From contig JAAYEK010000151.1 of the NCBI GenBank assembly GCA_012728785.1, forward strand, positions 3,096-67,095: 64,000 nucleotides of DNA, given 5' to 3'. Position numbers and translations under genes: made by a program. The notes under the pieces are model-generated. The model ran no database searches and was not told where the DNA came from. It saw nothing but the letters and a program-made list of their open reading frames with translations. The first letter of the stretch is position 1. Every line of letters begins with the position of its first letter. The stretch is from Bacillota bacterium. GTDB taxonomy: Bacteria > Bacillota > UBA4882 > UBA8346. Of the stretch, positions 5,506 to 56,489 are shown one piece after another.

Positions 5506-6549
5506 TTATTTTTTTCTCAAGAATGGAGGAATATCCAGTTCATCATTGACAAAAGGTCTAATTTCCAAGTCATCCAAACCCATCCGTTTGGACCGCTTTT
5601 GTTCAAAACCGGTGGCGATTACGGTAACCCTTATTTCTTCCCCTAAAGATTCATCAATTACAGCGCCGAATATAATATTGGCGTCAGGATCAACAGCATC
5701 GGTAATAATTGCCGCCGCTTCATTCACATCGGACAAGGTCAAATTACTGCTTCCAGTGATATTTAACAATACCCCTTTGGAACCTTCAATCGAGGTCTCA
5801 AGTAAAGCGCTGTTAATTGCGCTTTTCGCTGCCTGGACCGCCCGATCCTCTCCTTTAGCCAGACCAATTCCCATTAAAGCCGATCCGGCAGTGCTCATTA
5901 TGGTTTTTACGTCCGCGAAATCCACATTAATCAGTCCGGTGATGGTTATCAAGTCCGAGATACCTTGAACCCCTTGACGCAAAACATCGTCCGCCATTCG
6001 AAAAGCTTCAACAATGGAGGTGTTTTTATCGACAATTTGCAACAACCGTTCATTAGGAATAGTAATTAAGGTATCGACATTCTCTTTAAGAGTAGCGACG
6101 CCTTTTTCAGCTTGATTTTGACGAATCCGACCCTCAAATATAAATGGTTTCGTTACCACTCCAACTGTTAATGCTCCTAATTCCCGAGCCATTTGCGCAA
6201 TAACCGGCGCAGCGCCGGTCCCAGTGCCTCCACCCATACCGGCGGTTATAAATATCATGTCTGCGCCTTGTAAAACTCCGAGTATTTCATCTTTGCTTTC
6301 GAGAGCGGCTCTTTGTCCGATTTCAGGATTAGCACCAGCGCCTAATCCCTTAGTAAGCGCATCACCGATGCGTAATCGAATGTCGGCGTTAGATCGGTTT
6401 AGCGCCTGACCGTCAGTATTAATAGCTATAAACTCAACTCCTTGAATTTTAGCCTCAATCATCCTATTGACCGCATTGGTACCCCCGCCACCAACACCTA
6501 TTACTTTAAGAGATGCAAATTGGTGATTTGCAACATCAAATTCAAGCAT
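5506..6549 (-). CDS. ftsZ: Cell division GTPase FtsZ
   Basis: 347 aa. Tubulin signature [24 protein letters not shown], and a C-terminal DIPPFLRK tail. Confidence 0.97.
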
Positions 6550-45437: not shown

Positions 45438-45608
45438 TTACGATAGCCATATCTTGCAAATATAGTATTGCTTATTAGAGCCAATTGGTTTACATGCCGC
45501 CAATAGTGTATCTGGTAATGTTTCATCTAAAATTCCATTATTTTTCGGCAAATAATAGTGCAGCACCAGCATCAGCGCTACTATAATTAAACACATTATT
45601 TTTTGCAT
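45438..45608 (-). CDS. Possible small membrane peptide (56 aa) at the edge of the AT-rich island
   Basis: ATG preceded by AGAGGGTG. Product MQKIMCLIIVALMLVLHYY... has one TM helix and a Cys-containing tail. Weak evidence. Confidence 0.3.
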   Translation of the reverse strand: MQKIMCLIIVALMLVLHYYLPKNNGILDETLPDTLLAACKPIGSNKQYYICKIWLS

Positions 45609-45636
45609 CGTAATTTTACACCCTCTTTTTACGTTC

Positions 45637-46470
45637 TCAAGCGCTAAAACTTGGACAAGAATCCAGCAAAGGATAATTAAATATTTCAAATTTCACTTGA
45701 CCATCTTTAGTCAAAATACCGCTGAATACCATTTTTTCTTCATACTTTGAATTGTTATTGAGAAAATCCGTCCATTCTTTTCTACGGAGCATTCTTTTTT
45801 CCAAGTGAACGGTAATTTTATTTCCTTCTACTTGATAAGTGCCTTTATAAATTAACTTGGGAATATTGGTATCATGGTTTATAAAAAATTTATTATCATA
45901 AAACCAAAATTCTACTTGTTTATTTTTAGAAAATTTCGCGCCACCTACAAAGTTATAGATCCCTTCTCCAACGATATACCATTCTAACCCAGTCAAAATT
46001 TCTTCAACATCAACTGTTTTGGTAGGAGAAAGACCAATAAGGATTAAATAACGGAAATCCTTTCGGATTATATCTAAATCCGGATCAGTTTTAATTTTTA
46101 GAATGTAAGCCGGATTTAGTTTCTTTACTATTTGTAAATGCTCGAAAATCTCTTCGTAATGATCATATCCAAACTCTTCATCGCTTTTTGCCAATACTCC
46201 TATGGTGCAAGCATAGTTATAATGCGCTAAATAGTATGTGTTATCACTTGTGAATGATTTCTTAAACAAATCCAAAGCTTCTTCATATTTACCCTCTTTA
46301 TACAGTTTAAAACCCTTATTATTTAGATCAATAGCTGCTTCTCGATGACTAGTCGGCGAGTTAGTTTTTATCGAATCTGCTTGAGAAATAAAGGGTTGAT
46401 TTATAATAAGGCATAAAGCAAAACAAAATATAGTTAGTATCATAATCTTTAATTGTAAATAACGGATCAT
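45637..46470 (-). CDS. Secreted TPR-containing protein, unknown function (candidate immunity protein)
   Basis: The ATG at 46470 is preceded by GAGGTGA. It has a signal peptide (MILTIFCFALCLII...ISQA) and a TPR-like segment AIDLNNKGFKLYKEGKYEEALDLFKKSF. Confidence 0.6.
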   Translation of the reverse strand: MIRYLQLKIMILTIFCFALCLIINQPFISQADSIKTNSPTSHREAAIDLNNKGFKLYKEGKYEEALDLFKKSFTSDNTYYLAHYNYACTIGVLAKSDEEFGYDHYEEIFEHLQIVKKLNPAYILKIKTDPDLDIIRKDFRYLILIGLSPTKTVDVEEILTGLEWYIVGEGIYNFVGGAKFSKNKQVEFWFYDNKFFINHDTNIPKLIYKGTYQVEGNKITVHLEKRMLRRKEWTDFLNNNSKYEEKMVFSGILTKDGQVKFEIFNYPLLDSCPSFSA

Positions 46471-46514
46471 CCTTATCACCTCTTATTATTTCTTTAGTTA
46501 TAACCAAAGTAAAA

Positions 46515-47261
46515 TCAATGCTTCATTGCTGTTTTTACATCATTTTTAAACTTCTCCCAATTCGAATTATTTTCTCCATAAAATAATTTTGGACAATCTT
46601 TCTTAGCAAAATCATAATGTCGCAACAAACCATTTTGAACATCTAATTGATATTGTTTAAGCCTATCAGCAACTAAACGAACAAGGGTTGTATATGTTTT
46701 TGTACTAAAATTTCCTTCTGCATCTATTGGTTCAACTTCAATAGAAATAGCCCAATCATTATGATTGCGTTCCTCTTTCCCATTTCTAGTTATGAAGAAA
46801 CGTTTTTTACAAAGTTCGGTAATATTCTCAGGATGTTTTTTATCCCACCCATTAGCAAATGCTGTCTCTTCTTCAGGAACTATCAATAAAGCTTCTCCAT
46901 CAACACCAATAATATAATTGGAACTCACATCCTTATTCGTAATAAACCAATTTCGTGTTGCTTCTACTTTTTGATTAGGCGCAGCAGTCCAATGCACAAC
47001 AATAGCTTTTATTCCACCCGTTCTACGAGCACGCCTATTCCATGCCTCTCCATTCTTATATAATAAATTAGTAGTAATAGAATAATACATTTGTTCTTTA
47101 TTATAATAATTAATAGGTGGTATTGATTCTTGAGATTCTTTCTTCTTTTCCGGTGTTGTTTTTACCGGAAACGCTATCGCCTCATCCGATTCCAAGCATT
47201 GATTATGCTTCTCAATACTTATTACCCCACCCTTAACGCATTTCATTTTAGAATTATGCAT
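46515..47261 (-). CDS. Amidase_2 (PGRP/T7-lysozyme type) N-acetylmuramoyl-L-alanine amidase, likely the C-terminal part of a split DUF4280 fusion
   Basis: Contains IKAIVVHWTAAPN, SSNYIIGVDGE, WAISIEVEP and LLRHYDFAKKDCPKLF (Zn ligand and K-x-CP context). There is no close Shine-Dalgarno before its ATG, and the frame is open upstream to the TAA at 47316-47318. Confidence 0.8.
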   Translation of the reverse strand: MHNSKMKCVKGGVISIEKHNQCLESDEAIAFPVKTTPEKKKESQESIPPINYYNKEQMYYSITTNLLYKNGEAWNRRARRTGGIKAIVVHWTAAPNQKVEATRNWFITNKDVSSNYIIGVDGEALLIVPEEETAFANGWDKKHPENITELCKKRFFITRNGKEERNHNDWAISIEVEPIDAEGNFSTKTYTTLVRLVADRLKQYQLDVQNGLLRHYDFAKKDCPKLFYGENNSNWEKFKNDVKTAMKH

Positions 47262-47315
47262 GAGGGCCGATGCGCCTTCAATAATTACATCGTTTTTCCA
47301 ACTCTTCCACGGACC

Positions 47316-47516
47316 TTATAGCGACAGCCTGCATTGGTGATATTTCGGTATGCTGCAAAAATTAAATTTGTGAATACTTTTAGTAGTATAGTCATTAACA
47401 TTCGCTTGAGGCTTGCCTTGGATAAAAGTATTCCGCCCCGGAGTGACTTTTAGTTTACACGTCCCGCCTTTACTACATTTCAGAGTTGCTCCATCTACAA
47501 CATAACTGGTAGCCAT
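47316..47516 (-). CDS. DUF4280 (PAAR-like) domain, N-terminal part, ended by an in-frame TAA
   Basis: The ATG at 47516 is preceded by GGAGGTG. MATSYVVDGATLKCSKGGTCKLKVTPGRNTFIQGKPQANVNDY...FCS matches the DUF4280 N-half. The C-half motif PW...V.I.G..AL...S...C..GG.I.I follows after the stop. Confidence 0.7.
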   Translation of the reverse strand: MATSYVVDGATLKCSKGGTCKLKVTPGRNTFIQGKPQANVNDYTTKSIHKFNFCSIPKYHQCRLSL

Positions 47517-47543
47517 TGTAAACACCTCCTCGGATATTCATAC

Positions 47544-48581
47544 TTAAAGCTTTATTTTCTCAATAACGCTATCATGACTTAAATATAATAAATCTCCGAT
47601 TACCTTCTTACTAAAATACCGGCAAGTATAGCGCTTATTTAATAAGCTTTTACCTTCAAAGGAATAAATTTTGACATTGGTTTTGCTTTGATTATTATTA
47701 TCCATTGAGGTTTCCGTACAGATAAACTTATTTAATAAATATTCAATATGAAAACCGCTTAAATTAAGAAAGTTCTTCTTCTGTTCAATGACTTTTAAAC
47801 TTTTCATTGATAATAATTGTATAGTTTTTTCTTCAACGAAGAGTAGTGTATTATCTCTTTTAAACAGCCCTAATATGCCACCATCCGTTAAGAATGTTAA
47901 ATTAATTTGTTCAAAATTTGAATTATATTTTTTTAGTTGTGGTTTAGTTTTAAAATTAAGATGAATTGCGTAAATATTACCTTCTTGATCAATTACAGAA
48001 TTAACTATGTAGTCGTTATTTTTCTTTTGAAGCAGCTTACCATCTTTGATAAAATAGGATTTTTTATCTTCAGTATTAAATAGAACGTTCTTATAATCTT
48101 CAGAAATAGAATAATCGTTAATTCCTGTTTCAAAAACGTATTTCCAAATATCAACACCTTTTTCAGGATCGATTTTTCTTATCTCTCCACAATCATTGGT
48201 TACCGGCCCGGCTTCATTAATTAGTAATAATATCTCATTTTTTATTTTTATCAAATAATTTCCTTTAATCTCCCACAATTTATTTAAATCCAAATTAAGC
48301 CCAACTATATATCCCTCTGTTTCTAAAATAATAGTATTTTTACAAGTCTCTATAGCGAATGGTTGGTCTTTTATTGGAATAGATTTTATTAGTTTTAATC
48401 CATTATCATACTTGTTTAAAAAATACTTCTCGCTTGATTCTTGATGAATTACATACCAAGTACTATTATTGATCTCAAAATCAACTATGTTATTTGAAAA
48501 TTTTATTTCTTTACCTTGTGTGTTTTGCTGATTCAAGATAATTAAGAATACAAAAAATAAACTGATGAAAAATTTTTTCAT
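47544..48581 (-). CDS. Secreted beta-rich protein, unknown function (candidate immunity or adaptor)
   Basis: The ATG at 48581 gives a classic signal peptide MKKFFISLFFVFLIILNQQ. About 345 aa, Asn/Lys/Ile-rich, no family recognised. The longer ORF to 48647 overlaps the upstream gene. Confidence 0.6.
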   Translation of the reverse strand: MKKFFISLFFVFLIILNQQNTQGKEIKFSNNIVDFEINNSTWYVIHQESSEKYFLNKYDNGLKLIKSIPIKDQPFAIETCKNTIILETEGYIVGLNLDLNKLWEIKGNYLIKIKNEILLLINEAGPVTNDCGEIRKIDPEKGVDIWKYVFETGINDYSISEDYKNVLFNTEDKKSYFIKDGKLLQKKNNDYIVNSVIDQEGNIYAIHLNFKTKPQLKKYNSNFEQINLTFLTDGGILGLFKRDNTLLFVEEKTIQLLSMKSLKVIEQKKNFLNLSGFHIEYLLNKFICTETSMDNNNQSKTNVKIYSFEGKSLLNKRYTCRYFSKKVIGDLLYLSHDSVIEKIKL

Positions 48582-48612
48582 CTTTATCTCAACCCTTTCA
48601 GATTTTTTAACA

Positions 48613-50637
48613 CTATAGTAAAGGCTTCGTAATAAATTCAATTTCACCAGAATTTATAAGTTTTTCCGGATTGATATGTTTACCATCCTTCCTTGCAGTG
48701 ATATGAACATGAATTCCCATATTTTCAATTCCTTTAGCTGTGTTTCCCATTTTCCCTATTGCTTCTCCCTTTTTAACATTTACGCCTTTTTTAACGTAAA
48801 TCGTATCTACGTGACAATAACTAATTACTATTTCATCTACGTAACTAACTTGCACATACTTTCCTGATTTGTCTGTTACATTATCATGTACTGTTATTAC
48901 TATTCCTTCTCCAATCGATACTATATCTGGTTTTGTACCAGCTGGTATTGGCGCATAATCCGTTCCAGTATGCCATGTACTAGCACCTTCCGGAGCATCA
49001 GTTCTATAACCAACTCTAGAAGATACCCTATTTTGTCCCTTCACAGGATTAATCCAAGTATCAGCTTCTCCTTCTTTCTTTTTTACATTTTTTTCAGAAT
49101 TAATTCGGTTAGCATCTTTCCCTTGTTCCTTCCTTACCTTCGACCCGAAAATATGAATCATCCCGCTTTTTTCATTCTCATTCAACACCACCTTACTTTG
49201 GCCGCATTTAATATCAACCGCCTTTTTGGCGCTGATCGATACTTTCCTGCCTGCTTGCAAGTTCAGGTTGCCCTTGGACCGGATCTCCAGTTCATTATGG
49301 CTGGAGATGGTAACTCCCTTATCTTGGTCAAGCCGGATCTGCAAATTGGCTTCCTTTCCAGAGAGAGTTATCCCGGTTTGGTTCAATGCCAGTTCTTTCC
49401 GATGGTTGGTCCGGAACATTTTGGTATAAAGATGATCAACTAATCGTTCTCGATCTCTTTCAAGCCGCGTCGAACTGACAACAACCGCTTTATCCTCATT
49501 AGTTGAGGAGAATCGTATTTTTACATAATCTCCGAGTTCCGGCAGGCAATAAAACCCGGTGTGATTCTCAGCGCTATAATAGGTAGCATAAGGAAGCCAG
49601 GCCGCTTCTTCGGGAGGGGTGGGGTCATCAAAGTTGATTCTTACTTTGACCTTATCCTTGAGAGGATCATCATCCGGGCCGCCTACGTCAATCACATGTC
49701 CGTCCAAGGTTACTCCCGGCAGCTGCCGGTTATACCGGGGTTTCTGACGTAGTCCCCCATAAGGAGTTACTATTGTTTCAAAGTACAGTTCGCTGCCACG
49801 GATATAGGCAGTGGAAAGATAAACATAAAGGGCCGGCTGGATTCCCGGAAGGGTGACGGTATCGCCGATATCTAAGAATTGATTGGTCCGTAGTTTGTAA
49901 TAGACGTATTCTTCCGGGATACTGGTTTGATCATAATTCGCTTTCACAATCTGATGTTTGTTGATTCTTTTGATAATCCATAAAATAAGTGGCTCATTAA
50001 TTGAATATTCCTTCCCCTCAGGCAAACCTACACACAAGGAAGGTTTGCCGGCAATCGGGTCCGGGACCAGTCCGGTCTGAAATCGGGAAGCCAATCGCTT
50101 TAGGAACTGCCAGTCAGTCTCTTGGTACTGTAAGGTGAATTGGCCCAGCTTCTTTGATTCTTTGCTGTTTTTCTCCATCAGTTCTTTACCGGCAGAAATA
50201 ACCGCCGGCCAACTACCTGCCGCAATTTTATCAAGGGCCTTTTGGTAAGGCATCTCCTTATTTTGAAAAGAACGCCGCCGTCGTACCATGTTCAGCCAAT
50301 AGGTTTCCGAAGACCCGTTCAGCTTCATATAATAGTAGTTTTCGCCGGGAACAAACCAAAGCTTGATACGGGTGGCTACTCCGGCAAAGATTAAGGCCGG
50401 GTCGGAATTCTCCCCGGTATAGGTGACTTTGATCCGAGTCTCCCGGCTAGCCCGGTATAGGAAAGTTTCTCTTTCGGAAACTTCCACTCGCCTTCCGGAA
50501 AAAAAGAGCTTGACGTGATCATTAAGCTTCTTGGTGATTCGAAGATGCTTAACGGAATTCGGGTTGATCTTTTCTTCCGTCCCATCCTCCCAAATTAGGG
50601 TGATGGCAATTTTTTGAGCAACTCCCAACGTTACCAC
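48613..50637 (-). CDS. VgrG/gp5-like spike protein (late-control-D plus OB-fold) fused to a C-terminal M23/LytM peptidase
   Basis: 674 aa. OB-fold stretch GHVIDVGGPDDDPLKDKVKVRINFDD...WLPYATYY...GFYCLPELGDYVKIRF, then short beta-repeat strands, a Lys-rich linker, and M23 motifs WHTGTDYA (HxxxD) and GIHVHI (HxH). The start may be the TTG at 50628. Confidence 0.75.
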   Translation of the reverse strand: MVTLGVAQKIAITLIWEDGTEEKINPNSVKHLRITKKLNDHVKLFFSGRRVEVSERETFLYRASRETRIKVTYTGENSDPALIFAGVATRIKLWFVPGENYYYMKLNGSSETYWLNMVRRRRSFQNKEMPYQKALDKIAAGSWPAVISAGKELMEKNSKESKKLGQFTLQYQETDWQFLKRLASRFQTGLVPDPIAGKPSLCVGLPEGKEYSINEPLILWIIKRINKHQIVKANYDQTSIPEEYVYYKLRTNQFLDIGDTVTLPGIQPALYVYLSTAYIRGSELYFETIVTPYGGLRQKPRYNRQLPGVTLDGHVIDVGGPDDDPLKDKVKVRINFDDPTPPEEAAWLPYATYYSAENHTGFYCLPELGDYVKIRFSSTNEDKAVVVSSTRLERDRERLVDHLYTKMFRTNHRKELALNQTGITLSGKEANLQIRLDQDKGVTISSHNELEIRSKGNLNLQAGRKVSISAKKAVDIKCGQSKVVLNENEKSGMIHIFGSKVRKEQGKDANRINSEKNVKKKEGEADTWINPVKGQNRVSSRVGYRTDAPEGASTWHTGTDYAPIPAGTKPDIVSIGEGIVITVHDNVTDKSGKYVQVSYVDEIVISYCHVDTIYVKKGVNVKKGEAIGKMGNTAKGIENMGIHVHITARKDGKHINPEKLINSGEIEFITKPLL

Positions 50638-50859: not shown

Positions 50860-50899
50860 AAAAAAAGCTGCCTCGAAATTATTATTACTTCGAGACAGC
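50860..50899 (-). terminator. Rho-independent terminator separating the mnmA-side genes from the AT-rich island
   Basis: Perfect 11-bp stem GCTGCCTCGAA / TTCGAGGCAGC with an 11-nt loop, followed by TTTTTTT on the minus strand, just after the stop at 50908. Confidence 0.7.
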
Positions 50900-50907
50900 C
50901 CCTGTAT

Positions 50908-51129
50908 TCACTGCATCCTCCGGGCCATTCGGCGGGAAAAGGCTTCGGTGCCGTTTTTTAGAGCCGAAGTCCACCTCATTGTATTATCCCGGACCATTCT
51001 CACGGCGCCACGGGCATTATTTGTCGAAGCGGTATTCATCATCCCTCTTCTCCGGCCGGTCAGCATCACCAAACCAACGGCTGCCCCGACCAAACTCCCG
51101 GTGACCAAACTTCGTAAAACCCTATTCAT
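50908..51129 (-). CDS. Small Arg-rich hypothetical protein with one hydrophobic segment
   Basis: 73 aa. The ATG is preceded by GAGGTG at 8 nt. No family recognised. Confidence 0.55.
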   Translation of the reverse strand: MNRVLRSLVTGSLVGAAVGLVMLTGRRRGMMNTASTNNARGAVRMVRDNTMRWTSALKNGTEAFSRRMARRMQ

Positions 51130-55148: not shown

Positions 55149-56489
55149 TTATTCCTCAGTTCTTCCCTTTTGAGATTTAATCCGATCCAAATAGGTCCGA
55201 ATTTCTTTTTCATAACCCCGCTCAGTCGGTTGATAATAGTATTTACCTAATAAATTTGCAGGCAAATAATCTTGATTGACAATTCCCTCCGGATAATTAT
55301 GGGGATAGAGATAGCCGACACCATCTCCCAGCTTAGCAGCGCCCGGATGGGATGAATCCCTTAAGTGGGCTGGAACGTTCCGGTTTTCAAGGTTTTGAAC
55401 ATCGGCCATTGCCTGATGGATCGCCTCACAGCTAGCATTGGACTTGGGAGCGGTAGCGATATAAATTGCCGCTTGGGCCATGGGAATCTGGGCTTCAGGT
55501 AGACCAACCATCTCCAAAGCTTGCGCTGCGGCAACCGCCACCAATAGGGCCCGAGGATCAGCATTGCCGACATCTTCAGCGGCGTGAACAATCATCCTGC
55601 GGGCGATGAATTTAGGATCTTCCCCGGCGCTGATCATTCGAGCCAGATAATAAACAGCCGCATCAGGGTCTGAGCCCCGCATTGACTTGATAAAAGCCGA
55701 GATGGTATCATAATGGTTCTGTCCGTCCCGATCATATACAATCGGCCGTTGTTGGATACAATCGGCTAAAATATCTAAAGTTAAAATGATCTTTCCCGAA
55801 TCCGGGTCGGATTTAGTAGTCAGCGCCGCCAGTTCCAAGGCGTTCAAAGCAATCCGGGCATCGCCGTCGGCTTTATTGATTAAAAACTCCAGGGCGGACT
55901 GGTCCAGCTCCACCCGGTAATCACCTAACCCCCGTTCCCCATCGGAAAGAGCCTTGCCGATAATCTGTTTTAAGGCATCCTTAGTTAAGGTGGTAAACCG
56001 AAAGATCATGCTTCTGGAAATCAAGGGCGAGTTCACTTCATAGAGAGGATTTTCGGTAGTGGCCCCGATCAACAAAATTGTGCCGTCTTCAACCGCCGGA
56101 AGTAAGGCATCTTGTTGCGACTTATTAAAACGGTGAATCTCATCAATAAATAAAATCGTCTTTCGTTGGTATAGTTGATATCTTTCCCGGGCCTCAGCAA
56201 TCAGCCGCCGGATATCAGCGACACCGGCAGTGACGGCGTTTATACTTTCAAAAACAGCACTGGTCGTATTGGCGATAATTCGGGCCAAGGTCGTTTTTCC
56301 GGTCCCCGGTGGTCCGTAAAAGATCATCGACCTGAGCCGGTCGGCCTCGATCGCTCTCCGGAGCAACCGCCCCGGCCCTATTATTTCATCCTGTCCTTTA
56401 AATTCTTCGAGATTCCGCGGGCGCATCCTAGCGGCCAACGGCGCTTCTTTTTGAAGATTTGTTTCCGCGTTGGATGAAAAAAGATCCAT
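55149..56489 (-). CDS. rarA: Replication-associated recombination protein RarA/MgsA (AAA+ ATPase)
   Basis: 446 aa with Walker A GPPGTGKTT, Walker B LFIDEIHRF, and the MgsA C-domain. Confidence 0.95.
   Translation of the reverse strand: MDLFSSNAETNLQKEAPLAARMRPRNLEEFKGQDEIIGPGRLLRRAIEADRLRSMIFYGPPGTGKTTLARIIANTTSAVFESINAVTAGVADIRRLIAEARERYQLYQRKTILFIDEIHRFNKSQQDALLPAVEDGTILLIGATTENPLYEVNSPLISRSMIFRFTTLTKDALKQIIGKALSDGERGLGDYRVELDQSALEFLINKADGDARIALNALELAALTTKSDPDSGKIILTLDILADCIQQRPIVYDRDGQNHYDTISAFIKSMRGSDPDAAVYYLARMISAGEDPKFIARRMIVHAAEDVGNADPRALLVAVAAAQALEMVGLPEAQIPMAQAAIYIATAPKSNASCEAIHQAMADVQNLENRNVPAHLRDSSHPGAAKLGDGVGYLYPHNYPEGIVNQDYLPANLLGKYYYQPTERGYEKEIRTYLDRIKSQKGRTEE

Follow-up and report, generated by a model that had tools for sequence, protein, structure and literature searches.

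The closest described systems include the auxiliary vgrG/PAAR islands of the T6SS, exemplified by V. cholerae VgrG-3, whose C-terminus degrades peptidoglycan and which is accompanied by its immunity protein TsiV3/TsaB, and by the PAAR-toxin and PAAR-Rhs effectors. Among the tail-associated lysins of Gram-positive phages, lactococcal Tal proteins carry a C-terminal M23 peptidase. The loci of eCIS (Afp/PVC, AlgoCIS, Anabaena CIS) encode a sheath, a tube, gp25, gp6/7, a tape measure and an AAA+ ATPase, and their spikes are devoid of polymorphic-toxin fusions (PMC3482391). The atypical T6SS of Francisella bears a DUF4280-type tip (IglG) on its VgrG (PMC5349215). In Firmicutes, which were listed under T6SS toxins by Zhang 2012 (PMC3482391), an association of Phage_GPD with PAAR_H2 (DUF4280) was noted by Lays 2016 (PMC5349215) and Zhang 2021 (PMC8651086), and we found no mechanism described in the literature for this VgrG-DUF4280 pairing.

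The window described here (the whole stretch of DNA analysed, 64,000 nucleotides from a Bacillota bacterium) carries a VgrG-DUF4280 pair that represents the association seen in these surveys. We consider it probable (about 0.68) that this locus represents an 'auxiliary' or satellite effector-immunity island belonging to a Firmicute-wide, spike-based VgrG/DUF4280 polymorphic-toxin system. Its features are as follows:

50863..50903, minus strand: strong intrinsic-terminator-like hairpin with a 17-bp stem, between mnmA/a 73-aa ORF and the island
48613..50637, minus strand: VgrG/Pvc8-family spike with a C-terminal M23 endopeptidase, a 'specialised VgrG' effector of 674 aa (Pfam/NCBIfam and profile matches)
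49078..50637, minus strand: conserved VgrG trunk, residues 1-520, with gp27-like hub, gp5 OB fold and beta-helix (identity to the paralogue P0002, GC)
48667..48972, minus strand: Peptidase_M23 domain, residues 556-657, after a Lys-rich linker (Pfam 2.7e-16, motifs, GC)
47544..48581, minus strand: signal-peptide protein of no known family (p345), 345 aa, NLW47812.1 (N-terminal MKK and hydrophobic stretch)
46515..47516, minus strand: DUF4280 (PAAR-like)-Amidase_2 effector gene, nonsense-split (translation, Pfam, intact orthologues)
47316-47318, minus strand: in-frame TAA, replacing the CAA (Gln) of intact alleles (translation, comparison with relatives)
46590..47012, minus strand: Amidase_2 domain, a T7-lysozyme/PGRP-type N-acetylmuramoyl-L-alanine amidase (Pfam 1e-16, Zn-ligand pattern H ... 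Hx7C)
45637..46470, minus strand: signal-peptide TPR protein with a beta-rich C-terminal half, 277 aa, NLW47809.1 (weak TPR, TPR_END_plus 4.8e-9)

This organization shares with T6SS islands a spike ending in a wall hydrolase, a toxin-fused PAAR-like tip, an immunity-like gene after each toxin with a product exported to the wall compartment, a conserved trunk with a variable C-terminus, and one core locus that serves several satellite islands. It differs in that the hosts of the family are monoderm Firmicutes, that no TssB/C sheath, Hcp tube, TssJLM complex or ClpV is recognizable in the family's loci, that the core includes an Hsp70-like ATPase and a J protein, and that the tip is a DUF4280 protein rather than a classical PAAR.

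The product of the spike gene (671 aa, NLW47813.1, from the NCBI start at 50628) matched Phage_base_V above the Pfam cutoff (2.6e-7), Phage_GPD below it (4.9e-5) and DUF2345 (0.0019). The family profile matched the solved spikes of VgrG, Pvc8, Afp8, AlgoCIS and Anabaena CIS (1e-21 to 7e-17), with the VgrG structures 9rce and 8gra among the matches of the trunk profile and eCIS spikes as the closest solved relatives of the trunk (1e-17 to 1e-19). The protein also aligned end to end with the VgrG that stands alone in the core cluster of this MAG (31% identity, E=9e-85), and its M23 motifs, HTGTD (556) and HVH (643), are intact. Judging from these sequence comparisons, the 674-aa product comprises an entire VgrG spike and, added to its end, an endopeptidase of the M23 type for peptidoglycan, in agreement with the gpD/gp5-type spike with an M23 end of the original prediction.

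The tip gene had been correctly read as DUF4280 and Amidase_2 in one common frame (Pfam 1.3e-7 and 1e-16), but the product is not an intact tip-amidase: the overlooked TAA leaves a DUF4280 fragment of 66 aa and a separate amidase ORF of 248 aa (NLW47810.1). Two intact 333-aa orthologues, P0078 and P0082, which are ~90% identical, have a Gln at this codon position. The TAA allele is present in three assemblies; an ENA locus (L082), 99.99% identical to the window, has the same TAA, with the gene called there as two pieces of 66 aa and 248 aa, and in a Logan locus (L083) it was read directly. Once restored, the DUF4280 domain aligns over residues 4-109 with the stand-alone DUF4280 proteins of the core clusters, and the amidase domain is matched by PHROG endolysin/amidase families, down to 1.8e-19. 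The alleles compared indicate that a Gln-to-stop mutation breaks the DUF4280-amidase gene in this lineage, so that decay may be under way in half of the island. The idea that the whole island is a decaying, non-functional leftover of such a system would also account for its lack of the F3, pentapeptide and Imm11-like genes usual beside VgrG; we nevertheless consider it quite unlikely, as the 674-aa VgrG-M23 ORF, both downstream ORFs and the amidase catalytic residues are intact, and as the core cluster and a second, larger VgrG island with intact genes occur in the same organism or sample.

Comparison with the paralogous island suggests how the two toxin genes were put together. The VgrG-M23 protein shares 78-95% identity with P0002 in residues 1-520 and 22-35% in the remainder, and the DUF4280-amidase is 94%/86% identical to its paralogue up to residue 110 and 26% beyond. 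The GC content is host-like in the trunk (0.44-0.49) and 0.26-0.35 in the cassettes (0.28-0.37 in the M23 domain segment). Both genes thus combine a trunk for delivery, which is conserved, with C-terminal cassettes of low GC that were exchanged horizontally. VgrG relatives end in Ntox15, HNH, CdiA-CT, REase or RHS domains, and arrays of pairs formed by a DUF4280-toxin and a small protein are found among relatives. Elsewhere in the family, nucleases, deaminases and RHS toxins occur together with immunity genes.

In the islands of this organism, each of the five genes located after a toxin encodes an export signal, and none of the toxins themselves has one. None of the family profiles scanned (Pfam, NCBIfam, PHROGs) recognized p345, which has a single representative homologue among 1.84 billion proteins, and the signal-like N-terminus of the TPR protein reads ...FISQA/DS. 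A first set of 81 related loci contained no homologue of the TPR protein, and neither protein has relatives in the loci compared. By their position (directly after the toxin for p345) and their export signals, p345 is a candidate exported immunity protein for the M23 domain and the TPR protein for the amidase. Both had been described from the outset as signal-peptide proteins, the first without a recognizable family and the second with TPR repeats. The swapped C-termini, the foreign GC and the export signals together agree with the T6SS-style succession first proposed, namely spike-effector, exported immunity, tip-effector, exported immunity. A further ORF at 45438-45608, put forward as possibly encoding a small membrane peptide, is unsupported as a gene: other gene callers omit it and a terminator-like hairpin overlaps it.

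The island lies between housekeeping genes, mnmA-iscU-nifS on one side and HAD/ALDH/Rrf2 on the other, with a fla/che operon, and the hairpin at 50863-50903 separates it from mnmA and the 73-aa ORF, indicating that it starts its own transcription unit. We scanned 30 window ORFs, namely the ten closest neighbours on either side plus the ten largest of the rest, with Pfam, NCBIfam, PHROGs and PDB-sequence profiles. None of the 30 was a phage or CIS gene, and none encoded a sheath, a tube, gp25, gp6 or an AAA+ recycler; at 1-33 kb the scan covered ORFs of at least ~325 aa, so that a smaller, tube-sized gene may lie there. These results agree with the flanks as they were originally described.

They also bear on a possible origin of the island as the tail-lysin end, or as a remnant, of a prophage or tailocin. 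Endolysins and tail-associated lysins of phages often contain M23 and Amidase_2 domains, as the PHROG matches recall, the VgrG fold descends from the phage gp27/gp5 hub, and a gp27-like hub bearing an M23 peptidase for breaching thick peptidoglycan is just what phage tail lysins offer. However, a tblastn search of the trunk against 50,697 phage genomes gave zero matches, and the PHROG matches are confined to the hydrolase domains. Of the ORFs scanned in the mnmA-iscU-nifS, HAD/ALDH and flagellar flanks, none encodes an integrase, capsid, terminase or tape measure; the locus has no tRNA gene, and the direct repeats found within the island and near it form short, imperfect pairs, as chance would give. 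Unlike phage tail lysins, moreover, the island has immunity-like genes; the toxin ends of its family are polymorphic, and the neighbourhood conserved in that family is not of phage type. A phage origin of this kind is hardly credible.

It is also very improbable that these proteins serve the cell's own wall, in flagellum or envelope assembly or in breaching during sporulation or germination, instead of attack. The flagellar operon lies ~4 kb from the two wall hydrolases, and M23 proteins such as SpoIIQ act in sporulation, although the NCBIfam match is weak. Against such a role stand the foreign GC of the island, the variation of cassettes between close relatives, the tolerance of a pseudogene among its genes, and the nucleases, deaminases and RHS toxins with immunity genes of the family elsewhere; no other locus of the family adjoins flagellar or sporulation genes. 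No sporulation gene was found among the ORFs tested, and nothing ties the island to sporulation or germination as had been suggested.

The VgrG family of the window gene, named 'contractile injection system protein, VgrG/Pvc8 family' by NCBI, is found in hundreds of Firmicute genomes. With so many members, a conserved cluster and a published VgrG-DUF4280 association (PMC5349215, PMC8651086), the pair is no unique orphan, as it had been taken to be. The core cluster runs, in order, through two FHA proteins, a PP2C, a PP2C-TM-TPR protein, two unknown proteins and a full Hsp70-like ATPase; next come the TssK-like protein, the accessory protein (UCP033725) and VgrG, and then the pentapeptide, Imm11-like and DUF4280 proteins. 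Where a locus extends far enough, as few do, a J-domain gene with an HPD motif precedes the FHA pair. All four core families F6-F9 are present in 34 of 76 genome loci, F3, F2, F1 or F4 are held by 58-62 of the 76, and the same pattern recurs in metagenome loci. The F7 model matched full-length DnaK/BiP (E=1e-18). The ten best solved-structure matches of the F8 model are all baseplate or tail-fibre parts, and its viral matches are receptor-binding-protein shoulders; among those ten, F8 matched TssK at 3e-4, with low TM-scores (0.39-0.43), and the Francisella TssK homologue IglD (8dql) at E=8e-3, with a TM-score of 0.39 in both directions. Within F1-F9, the families covered by the scan for membrane segments, a single such segment was predicted, in F5.

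The same MAG contains this core on another contig, with a J-domain gene, two FHA, a PP2C, a membrane PP2C-TPR, two unknowns, an 880-aa full Hsp70-like ATPase, the TssK-like and UCP033725 accessory genes and a stand-alone VgrG, just past which the contig ends; in other genomes, the pentapeptide-repeat, Imm11-like and DUF4280 genes follow. Proteins of this core (L090/L163) are identical to NLW45863-45866 (locus tag GXY86_00765), and the window genes are NLW47809-47815 (GXY86_10820). MAG binning, a tetranucleotide correlation between the core contig and the window of 0.94 (0.929 between the window's own chunks, <=0.855 for unrelated loci), coverage and co-occurrence in one ENA assembly (window island 5.1, core contig 4.5, second VgrG island 4.9) argue that the two contigs belong to one organism.

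The expectation of a machine encoded elsewhere is thus borne out as far as a core cluster exists on another contig, but this cluster has no recognizable sheath, tube, gp25 or gp6 gene (Pfam, NCBIfam, PHROGs and PDB-sequence profiles). The spike and tip might instead be loaded on a canonical contractile machine encoded elsewhere, eCIS/tailocin-like or T6SS, the Hsp70/TssK-like cluster being only an accessory or loading module; the trunk profile is indeed closest to spikes of contractile systems, and F8 resembles TssK, a baseplate part of such systems. We regard this as unlikely, because neither the 30 window ORFs nor the conserved cluster contains a recognizable sheath, tube, gp25, gp6 or AAA+ recycler gene, and because an independent survey (PMC8651086) saw no eCIS/T6SS genes near the Phage_GPD/DUF4280 pairs of Firmicutes. 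Likewise, counterparts of the sheath (IglA/B) and tube (IglC) of the diderm Francisella were not detected in the Firmicute loci, nor were the sheath, tube and other components of eCIS loci seen there. Across Bacilli and Clostridia, VgrG stays tightly syntenic with one and the same set of non-sheath genes, which argues that these genes are its partners. F6 and F9 may themselves be highly diverged structural components, including tube-like or sheath-like ones.

As a satellite island of this system, the locus would work as follows. VgrG-M23 trimers, alone or mixed with paralogues, would receive a DUF4280 protein as their cap, and the Hsp70/J pair would help to assemble them on a baseplate-like platform, under the control of phospho-Thr signalling (FHA/PP2C). 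The spike may then be released or pushed out, across the envelope by a route for which no sheath, tube or membrane channel is recognizable in the window ORFs scanned or in the core cluster. Its wall hydrolases would cleave the peptidoglycan of neighbouring Gram-positive cells, while exported p345 and TPR proteins would shield the producer's own wall. Beyond what earlier surveys reported, these data add to the Firmicute VgrG-DUF4280 pair a partner cluster (Hsp70-like, J protein, TssK-like, FHA/PP2C, F6, F9 and F3), an organization in satellite islands, and wall-hydrolase versions with exported immunity candidates.

The island is a run of minus-strand genes, present as the original prediction had described it, and comprises the following features:

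48613-50637, minus strand: 674-aa VgrG-M23 product (Phage_base_V, 2.6e-7; Peptidase_M23, 2.7e-16)
47544-48581, minus strand: p345, a 345-aa product with a signal-like N-terminus
47316-47525, minus strand: first half of a DUF4280 domain (Pfam, 1.3e-7; profile positions 1-57 of 109)
46515-47261, minus strand: Amidase_2 ORF (Pfam, 1e-16; profile positions 5-129 of 131)
45637-46470, minus strand: signal-peptide TPR protein of 277 aa, with weak TPR matches (TPR_END_plus, 4.8e-9)

A further small ORF proposed at 45438-45608 was rejected, as other gene callers omit it and a terminator-like hairpin overlaps it. The 674-aa product had been read as a late-control-D/gp5 spike ending in an M23 peptidase, and both Pfam and profile matches to solved spikes uphold this reading. 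Its Phage_base_V score is above the Pfam cutoff (DUF2345 reaches 0.0019), and Phage_GPD, at 4.9e-5 for the single sequence, falls short of its curated Pfam cutoff; this domain (PF05954) is present in homologues of the protein. A family profile made from the 674-aa protein and 22 homologues, run against the sequences of solved structures, matched T6SS VgrG (9rce, 1.2e-21; 8gra, 7e-20), and also AlgoCIS 7aef, Anabaena CIS 7b5h, Pvc8, Afp8 (7e-17) and Pseudomonas VgrG1 (5e-7). The alignments cover a gp27-like hub (profile residues 21-180 with Afp8 17-176, and residues 69-165 with VgrG1) as well as the gp5 OB fold and beta-helical spike (profile positions 300-469 with solved VgrG/Pvc8 spikes, 1e-21 to 3e-17). 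Because the family profile matches solved spike proteins, the predicted identity of the protein as a VgrG can be considered firm. Residues 28-502 of the trunk align end to end with a stand-alone 473-aa VgrG, which stops exactly where the Lys-rich linker and the M23 domain start in the 674-aa protein. The Peptidase_M23 match spans profile positions 3-96 of 96, and the zinc motifs are intact (HxxxD as HTGTD at 556 and HxH as HVH at 643). Adjacency to DUF4280 genes is consistent with a VgrG trimer that would seat a PAAR-type cone.

The DUF4280 domain had been claimed to continue in frame into the amidase. The two ORFs do share one frame and both domains are matched, but they are parted by a TAA codon (47316-47318, after residue 69) that had gone unreported. 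In the restored ORF, residues 4-109 are 32-41% identical to stand-alone DUF4280 proteins and Cys residues occur at 17, 23, 57, 65, 96 and 110; a PAAR-like tip domain of ~100 aa with conserved Cys and a vgrG neighbour is thus recognizable, though interrupted by the TAA. The amidase carries the VVHWT motif and the Hx7C pattern HYDFAKKDC, whose His, His and Cys would be zinc ligands as in T7 lysozyme. Two relatives of ~90% identity (P0078 and P0082) are unbroken 333-aa DUF4280-Amidase_2 proteins with a Gln codon (CAA) at the position of the stop. The TAA allele occurs in three assemblies, namely the NCBI MAG, an ENA locus (L082, where it was deduced from split gene calls and 99.99% identity) and a Logan locus from another run (L083, where it was read directly), which makes an assembly error unlikely. 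Recoding of the stop codon was also rejected, since TAA is neither the Pyl (TAG) nor the Sec (TGA) codon and the intact relatives have CAA. From these alleles, the TAA is a real, plain nonsense allele, and the tip-amidase is predicted to be inactivated in the lineage of the window.

On one side, the island is flanked by mnmA-iscU-nifS, a PLP enzyme, MgsA/RarA, chemotaxis genes and RNA-modification genes, and on the other by HAD, ALDH, an Rrf2 regulator and a long fla/che operon, the mnmA-iscU-nifS and HAD/ALDH flanks being as originally given. The possibility that the island is the remnant of a prophage or tailocin was rejected on two grounds, phage-free flanks and the lack of phage homologues. 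Among 30 flanking ORFs scanned (the ten nearest per side and the ten largest elsewhere, which at 1-33 kb covers ORFs from ~325 aa upwards), none was a phage, capsid, terminase, sheath, tube, baseplate, tape-measure or integrase gene, which bears out the original prediction for these ORFs, and a tblastn search of the VgrG trunk against 50,697 phage genomes gave no match. MgsA/RarA is the only AAA+ protein among the 30 ORFs. The tRNA and Rfam scans of the window were empty, and no convincing pair of repeats, direct or inverted, marks the ends of the island, the short imperfect ones being poor candidates for att sites. A terminator with a 17-bp stem separates the island from mnmA.

Some features of the surroundings are recorded here in their own right. 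The fla/che operon takes up most of the window (5506-41311) and encodes FlgB/C, FliF, FliG, FliH, FliI, FliJ, FliK, a 751-aa FlgE, FliM, FliY, FlhB, FlhA, FlhF, CheA and FapA; a short FtsZ-family ORF (347 aa) is found at 5506-6549. In the stretch 50863-51129, between mnmA and the island, the terminator is preceded by a 73-aa ORF that is rich in Arg and contains a single hydrophobic segment; the ENA assembly annotates it as a gene, and it has only faint GvpT/DUF4310 matches. The longest-ORF call for MgsA/RarA shares 65 nt (55149-55213) with that for the Ala_racemase_N-like gene upstream of it, which is probably a mere matter of start-codon choice.

By scanning one genome per species, we identified 364 relatives of the VgrG family and kept 76 loci, from Aneurinibacillus, Brevibacillus, Paenibacillus, Lysinibacillus, Solibacillus, Sporosarcina, Lacrimispora, Lachnospiraceae and Clostridia MAGs; the species of the window is absent from the GTDB representatives carrying the family, among which the best match is 36% identical. 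Clustering of neighbouring ORFs yielded a conserved gene order that includes nine families (F1-F9): FHA, FHA, PP2C, F5 (PP2C-TM-TPR), F6 (~425 aa), F9 (~231 aa), F7 (~884 aa), F8 (~260 aa), F3 (~220 aa), VgrG (474 aa), F2 (pentapeptide-repeat), F1 (Imm11-like) and F4 (DUF4280), then VgrG-toxins and variable downstream genes. F6-F9 are complete in 34 of the 76 loci and partial in 11, the remaining 31 being incomplete contigs or satellite islands. In Paenibacillus tyrfis, for instance, the loci are satellites, and an F8 homologue of the same species (P0247) is on a 506-kb contig. Metagenome loci show the same pattern, and, in every case where the sequence extends far enough, the FHA genes are immediately preceded by one for a J-domain protein with an HPD motif.

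Two of the core families gave structural leads. F7 has the Hsp70 phosphate motifs, and the AlphaFold model of the family (pLDDT 76) aligns with full-length DnaK/BiP (1e-18). The F8 model (pLDDT 82.5) consists of a beta-sandwich followed by a four-helix neck, and its ten best matches among solved structures are all baseplate or tail-fibre parts, including the phage phi812 baseplate (2e-4), TssK (5y0e, 3e-4), IglD (8e-3) and the HFTV1 and Anabaena CIS baseplates (TM-scores 0.39-0.43), the viral matches being to receptor-binding-protein shoulders. Because these TM-scores are modest, we call the modelled F8 TssK-like, not TssK. Profiles of F3, F6, F8 and F9 found no match among PDB sequences, nor did F6 and F9 when tested member by member against Pfam. 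Searches with Pfam, NCBIfam, PHROGs and PDB-sequence profiles linked no conserved family to a sheath or tube model, nor to one of gp25 or gp6. Membrane segments were predicted in none of F1-F4 and F6-F9 and only once in F5, and no TssJ/L/M membrane complex was recognized among F1-F9. The cluster is not supported as a known defence system either: PADLOC returned only a PP2C-type match on F5 and two marginal ones on F7 (E 0.03-0.05).

Several observations concern individual families. Public annotations of the core look misleading, with F8 listed under 'DNA and RNA helicase', F9 under 'iron-dependent peroxidase' and F7 under 'molecular chaperone' (L002-L161). F1 has a weak Imm11 match, yet in 62 of the 76 loci it sits beside the pentapeptide protein and DUF4280, and by this distribution it behaves like an accessory or adaptor rather than an immunity protein. 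An F7 fragment (P0180) that is 85% identical to a Brevibacillus protein lies on a 2.4-kb contig whose record attributes it to 'Mesorhizobium sp.', which is probably assembly contamination. The core of F3 appears, by eye, to resemble DUF1795/Eag-type chaperones; in the MAG of the window, F3 reaches 351 aa and bears an additional C-terminal domain of ~150 aa (L090 5235-6311 / L163 13522-14577) and carries the new Pfam family UCP033725 (PF27768).

The core cluster is also present in the MAG that carries the island. The window contig bears GXY86_* locus tags (proteins NLW47809-47815) in an unclassified 'Firmicutes/Bacillota bacterium' MAG. The metagenome contig with the top tetranucleotide correlation to the housekeeping DNA of the window (L090, 0.94, against an average of 0.929 for the window's own chunks and at most 0.855 for unrelated loci) encodes F6-F9-F7-F8-F3-VgrG. 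The core contig belongs to the MAG of the window, because NCBI NLW45863-45866, locus tag GXY86_00765 among them, are the very proteins encoded on L090. The full contig (ENA ERZ795066 NODE_1609, 32.8 kb, coverage 4.5) has, in the stretch retrieved, the order Tae4-family amidase, lipoprotein, DnaJ, FHA, FHA, PP2C, F5, F6, F9, F7, F8, F3 and VgrG, and ends just past the core VgrG. In the same assembly, the island of the window is on NODE_3603 (coverage 5.1, 99.99% identical), and a further locus, L001 (NODE_1653), has a coverage of 4.9 and a tetranucleotide correlation of 0.93. Binning, composition, coverage and co-occurrence agree and point to one organism as the probable source of the core, the island and L001. 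L001 (5866-22646; also L084), near alaS, is a second, larger island with four VgrG paralogues, a 717-aa pentapeptide protein, an intact DUF4280-amidase, a TcaA_5th-like exported protein, a DUF2259 protein and two Imm11-like genes.

Comparison of the islands revealed a conserved N-terminal trafficking module with exchanged C-termini, as in polymorphic toxins. The VgrG of the window and P0002, an 881-aa protein of L001, are 78-95% identical at residues 1-520 and 22-35% beyond, while the DUF4280-amidase and its L001 counterpart share 94% and 86% identity within the DUF4280 domain and 26% beyond. These segment identities place the breakpoint past the entire DUF4280 domain, near residue 110, and a recombination breakpoint at the stop codon was rejected. 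GC content is 0.44-0.49 across the VgrG trunk, similar to adjacent genes, and drops to 0.26-0.35 from the M23 region to the last gene of the island. Elsewhere, VgrG homologues end in Ntox15, HNH, CdiA-CT, restriction-fold or deaminase-like toxins or are stand-alone (~474 aa); DUF4280 is also found at the head of RHS toxins and in arrays of DUF4280-toxin and small-protein pairs.

The genes downstream of the toxins are unrelated from island to island. All five genes that follow a toxin in the islands of this organism (p345, the TPR protein, the DUF2259 protein, a 491-aa protein and the lipoprotein after the Tae4-family amidase) encode a signal peptide or lipobox, which none of the toxins has. 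p345 matched no family in Pfam, NCBIfam, PHROGs or PADLOC, and has one representative homologue among 1.84 billion proteins. The pattern of export signals fits candidate immunity proteins that would act outside the membrane, at the peptidoglycan. The Tae4-family (type VI amidase effector 4) protein and its lipoprotein (IIGC lipobox, WG_beta_rep), encoded directly upstream of the core J-domain gene (L163 2272-3377), look like a third pair of wall-amidase and candidate immunity protein in the same organism.

That VgrG- and DUF4280-like proteins occur in Firmicutes without an obvious machine, the headline of the original prediction, is an already known puzzle, since surveys had pointed to the association: firmicutes were listed among the lineages with VgrG/PAAR-type toxins (Zhang et al. 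2012, PMC3482391), DUF4280 was noted in Gram-positive bacteria and a phage-like translocation system raised as a possibility (Lays et al. 2016, PMC5349215), and Firmicute Phage_GPD was found to adjoin PAAR_H2 (DUF4280) without eCIS/T6SS genes, with the same speculation (Zhang et al. 2021, PMC8651086). We found no description of the conserved partner cluster in the searchable literature, which leaves most subscription journals outside its coverage, and the interest of the island comes mainly from this wider system. In its logic, the island resembles the auxiliary vgrG/PAAR clusters of T6SS, its closest analogue being V. cholerae VgrG-3 with its immunity protein (see also PMC5576092). The Firmicute system shares with T6SS the spike, the PAAR-like tip and a TssK-like protein, but differs in having its own Hsp70/J pair and FHA/PP2C signalling and in that no sheath, tube, membrane complex or ClpV was seen. 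Neither the TssB/TssC sheath, Hcp tube and ClpV of canonical T6SS (Pfam, NCBIfam and PHROG) nor the sheath, tube, gp25, gp6/gp7, tape measure and Afp15-type AAA+ protein of eCIS (Afp/PVC; HMM level) was detected among the 30 window ORFs and the conserved cluster.

The window appears to hold a satellite effector-immunity island. We tentatively propose, with a probability of roughly 0.4, that it provides ammunition for a sheath-less and tube-less monoderm machine with a T6SS-related VgrG/PAAR-like spike and a TssK-like platform, assembled or driven by the Hsp70-like/J pair and switched by FHA/PP2C. In the most likely working model, toxin-bearing spikes would be assembled on a baseplate-like platform with the help of chaperones and under phospho-Thr control, and would afterwards leave by release or extrusion; target peptidoglycan would be cut by the M23 endopeptidase and by the amidases, and the exported candidate immunity proteins would shield the producer.

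If real, the proposed sheath-less and tube-less machine would be a new type of secretion/injection system in hundreds of Bacilli and Clostridia. The question of whether Gram-positive bacteria possess a T6SS-like, phage-derived translocation apparatus dates back to 2016 or earlier (PMC5349215) and resurfaced in 2021 (PMC8651086), with no answer in the searchable literature. The locus and the cluster supply a concrete list of ~13 genes, among which are those of a TssK-like protein and of a dedicated Hsp70/J pair, and because the cluster occurs in the cultivable genera Brevibacillus, Lysinibacillus, Aneurinibacillus and Paenibacillus, the question is open to genetics and cryo-ET. The wall-hydrolase warheads, together with the exported immunity candidates, suggest a route past thick peptidoglycan, and are themselves candidate antibacterial enzymes against Gram-positive bacteria.
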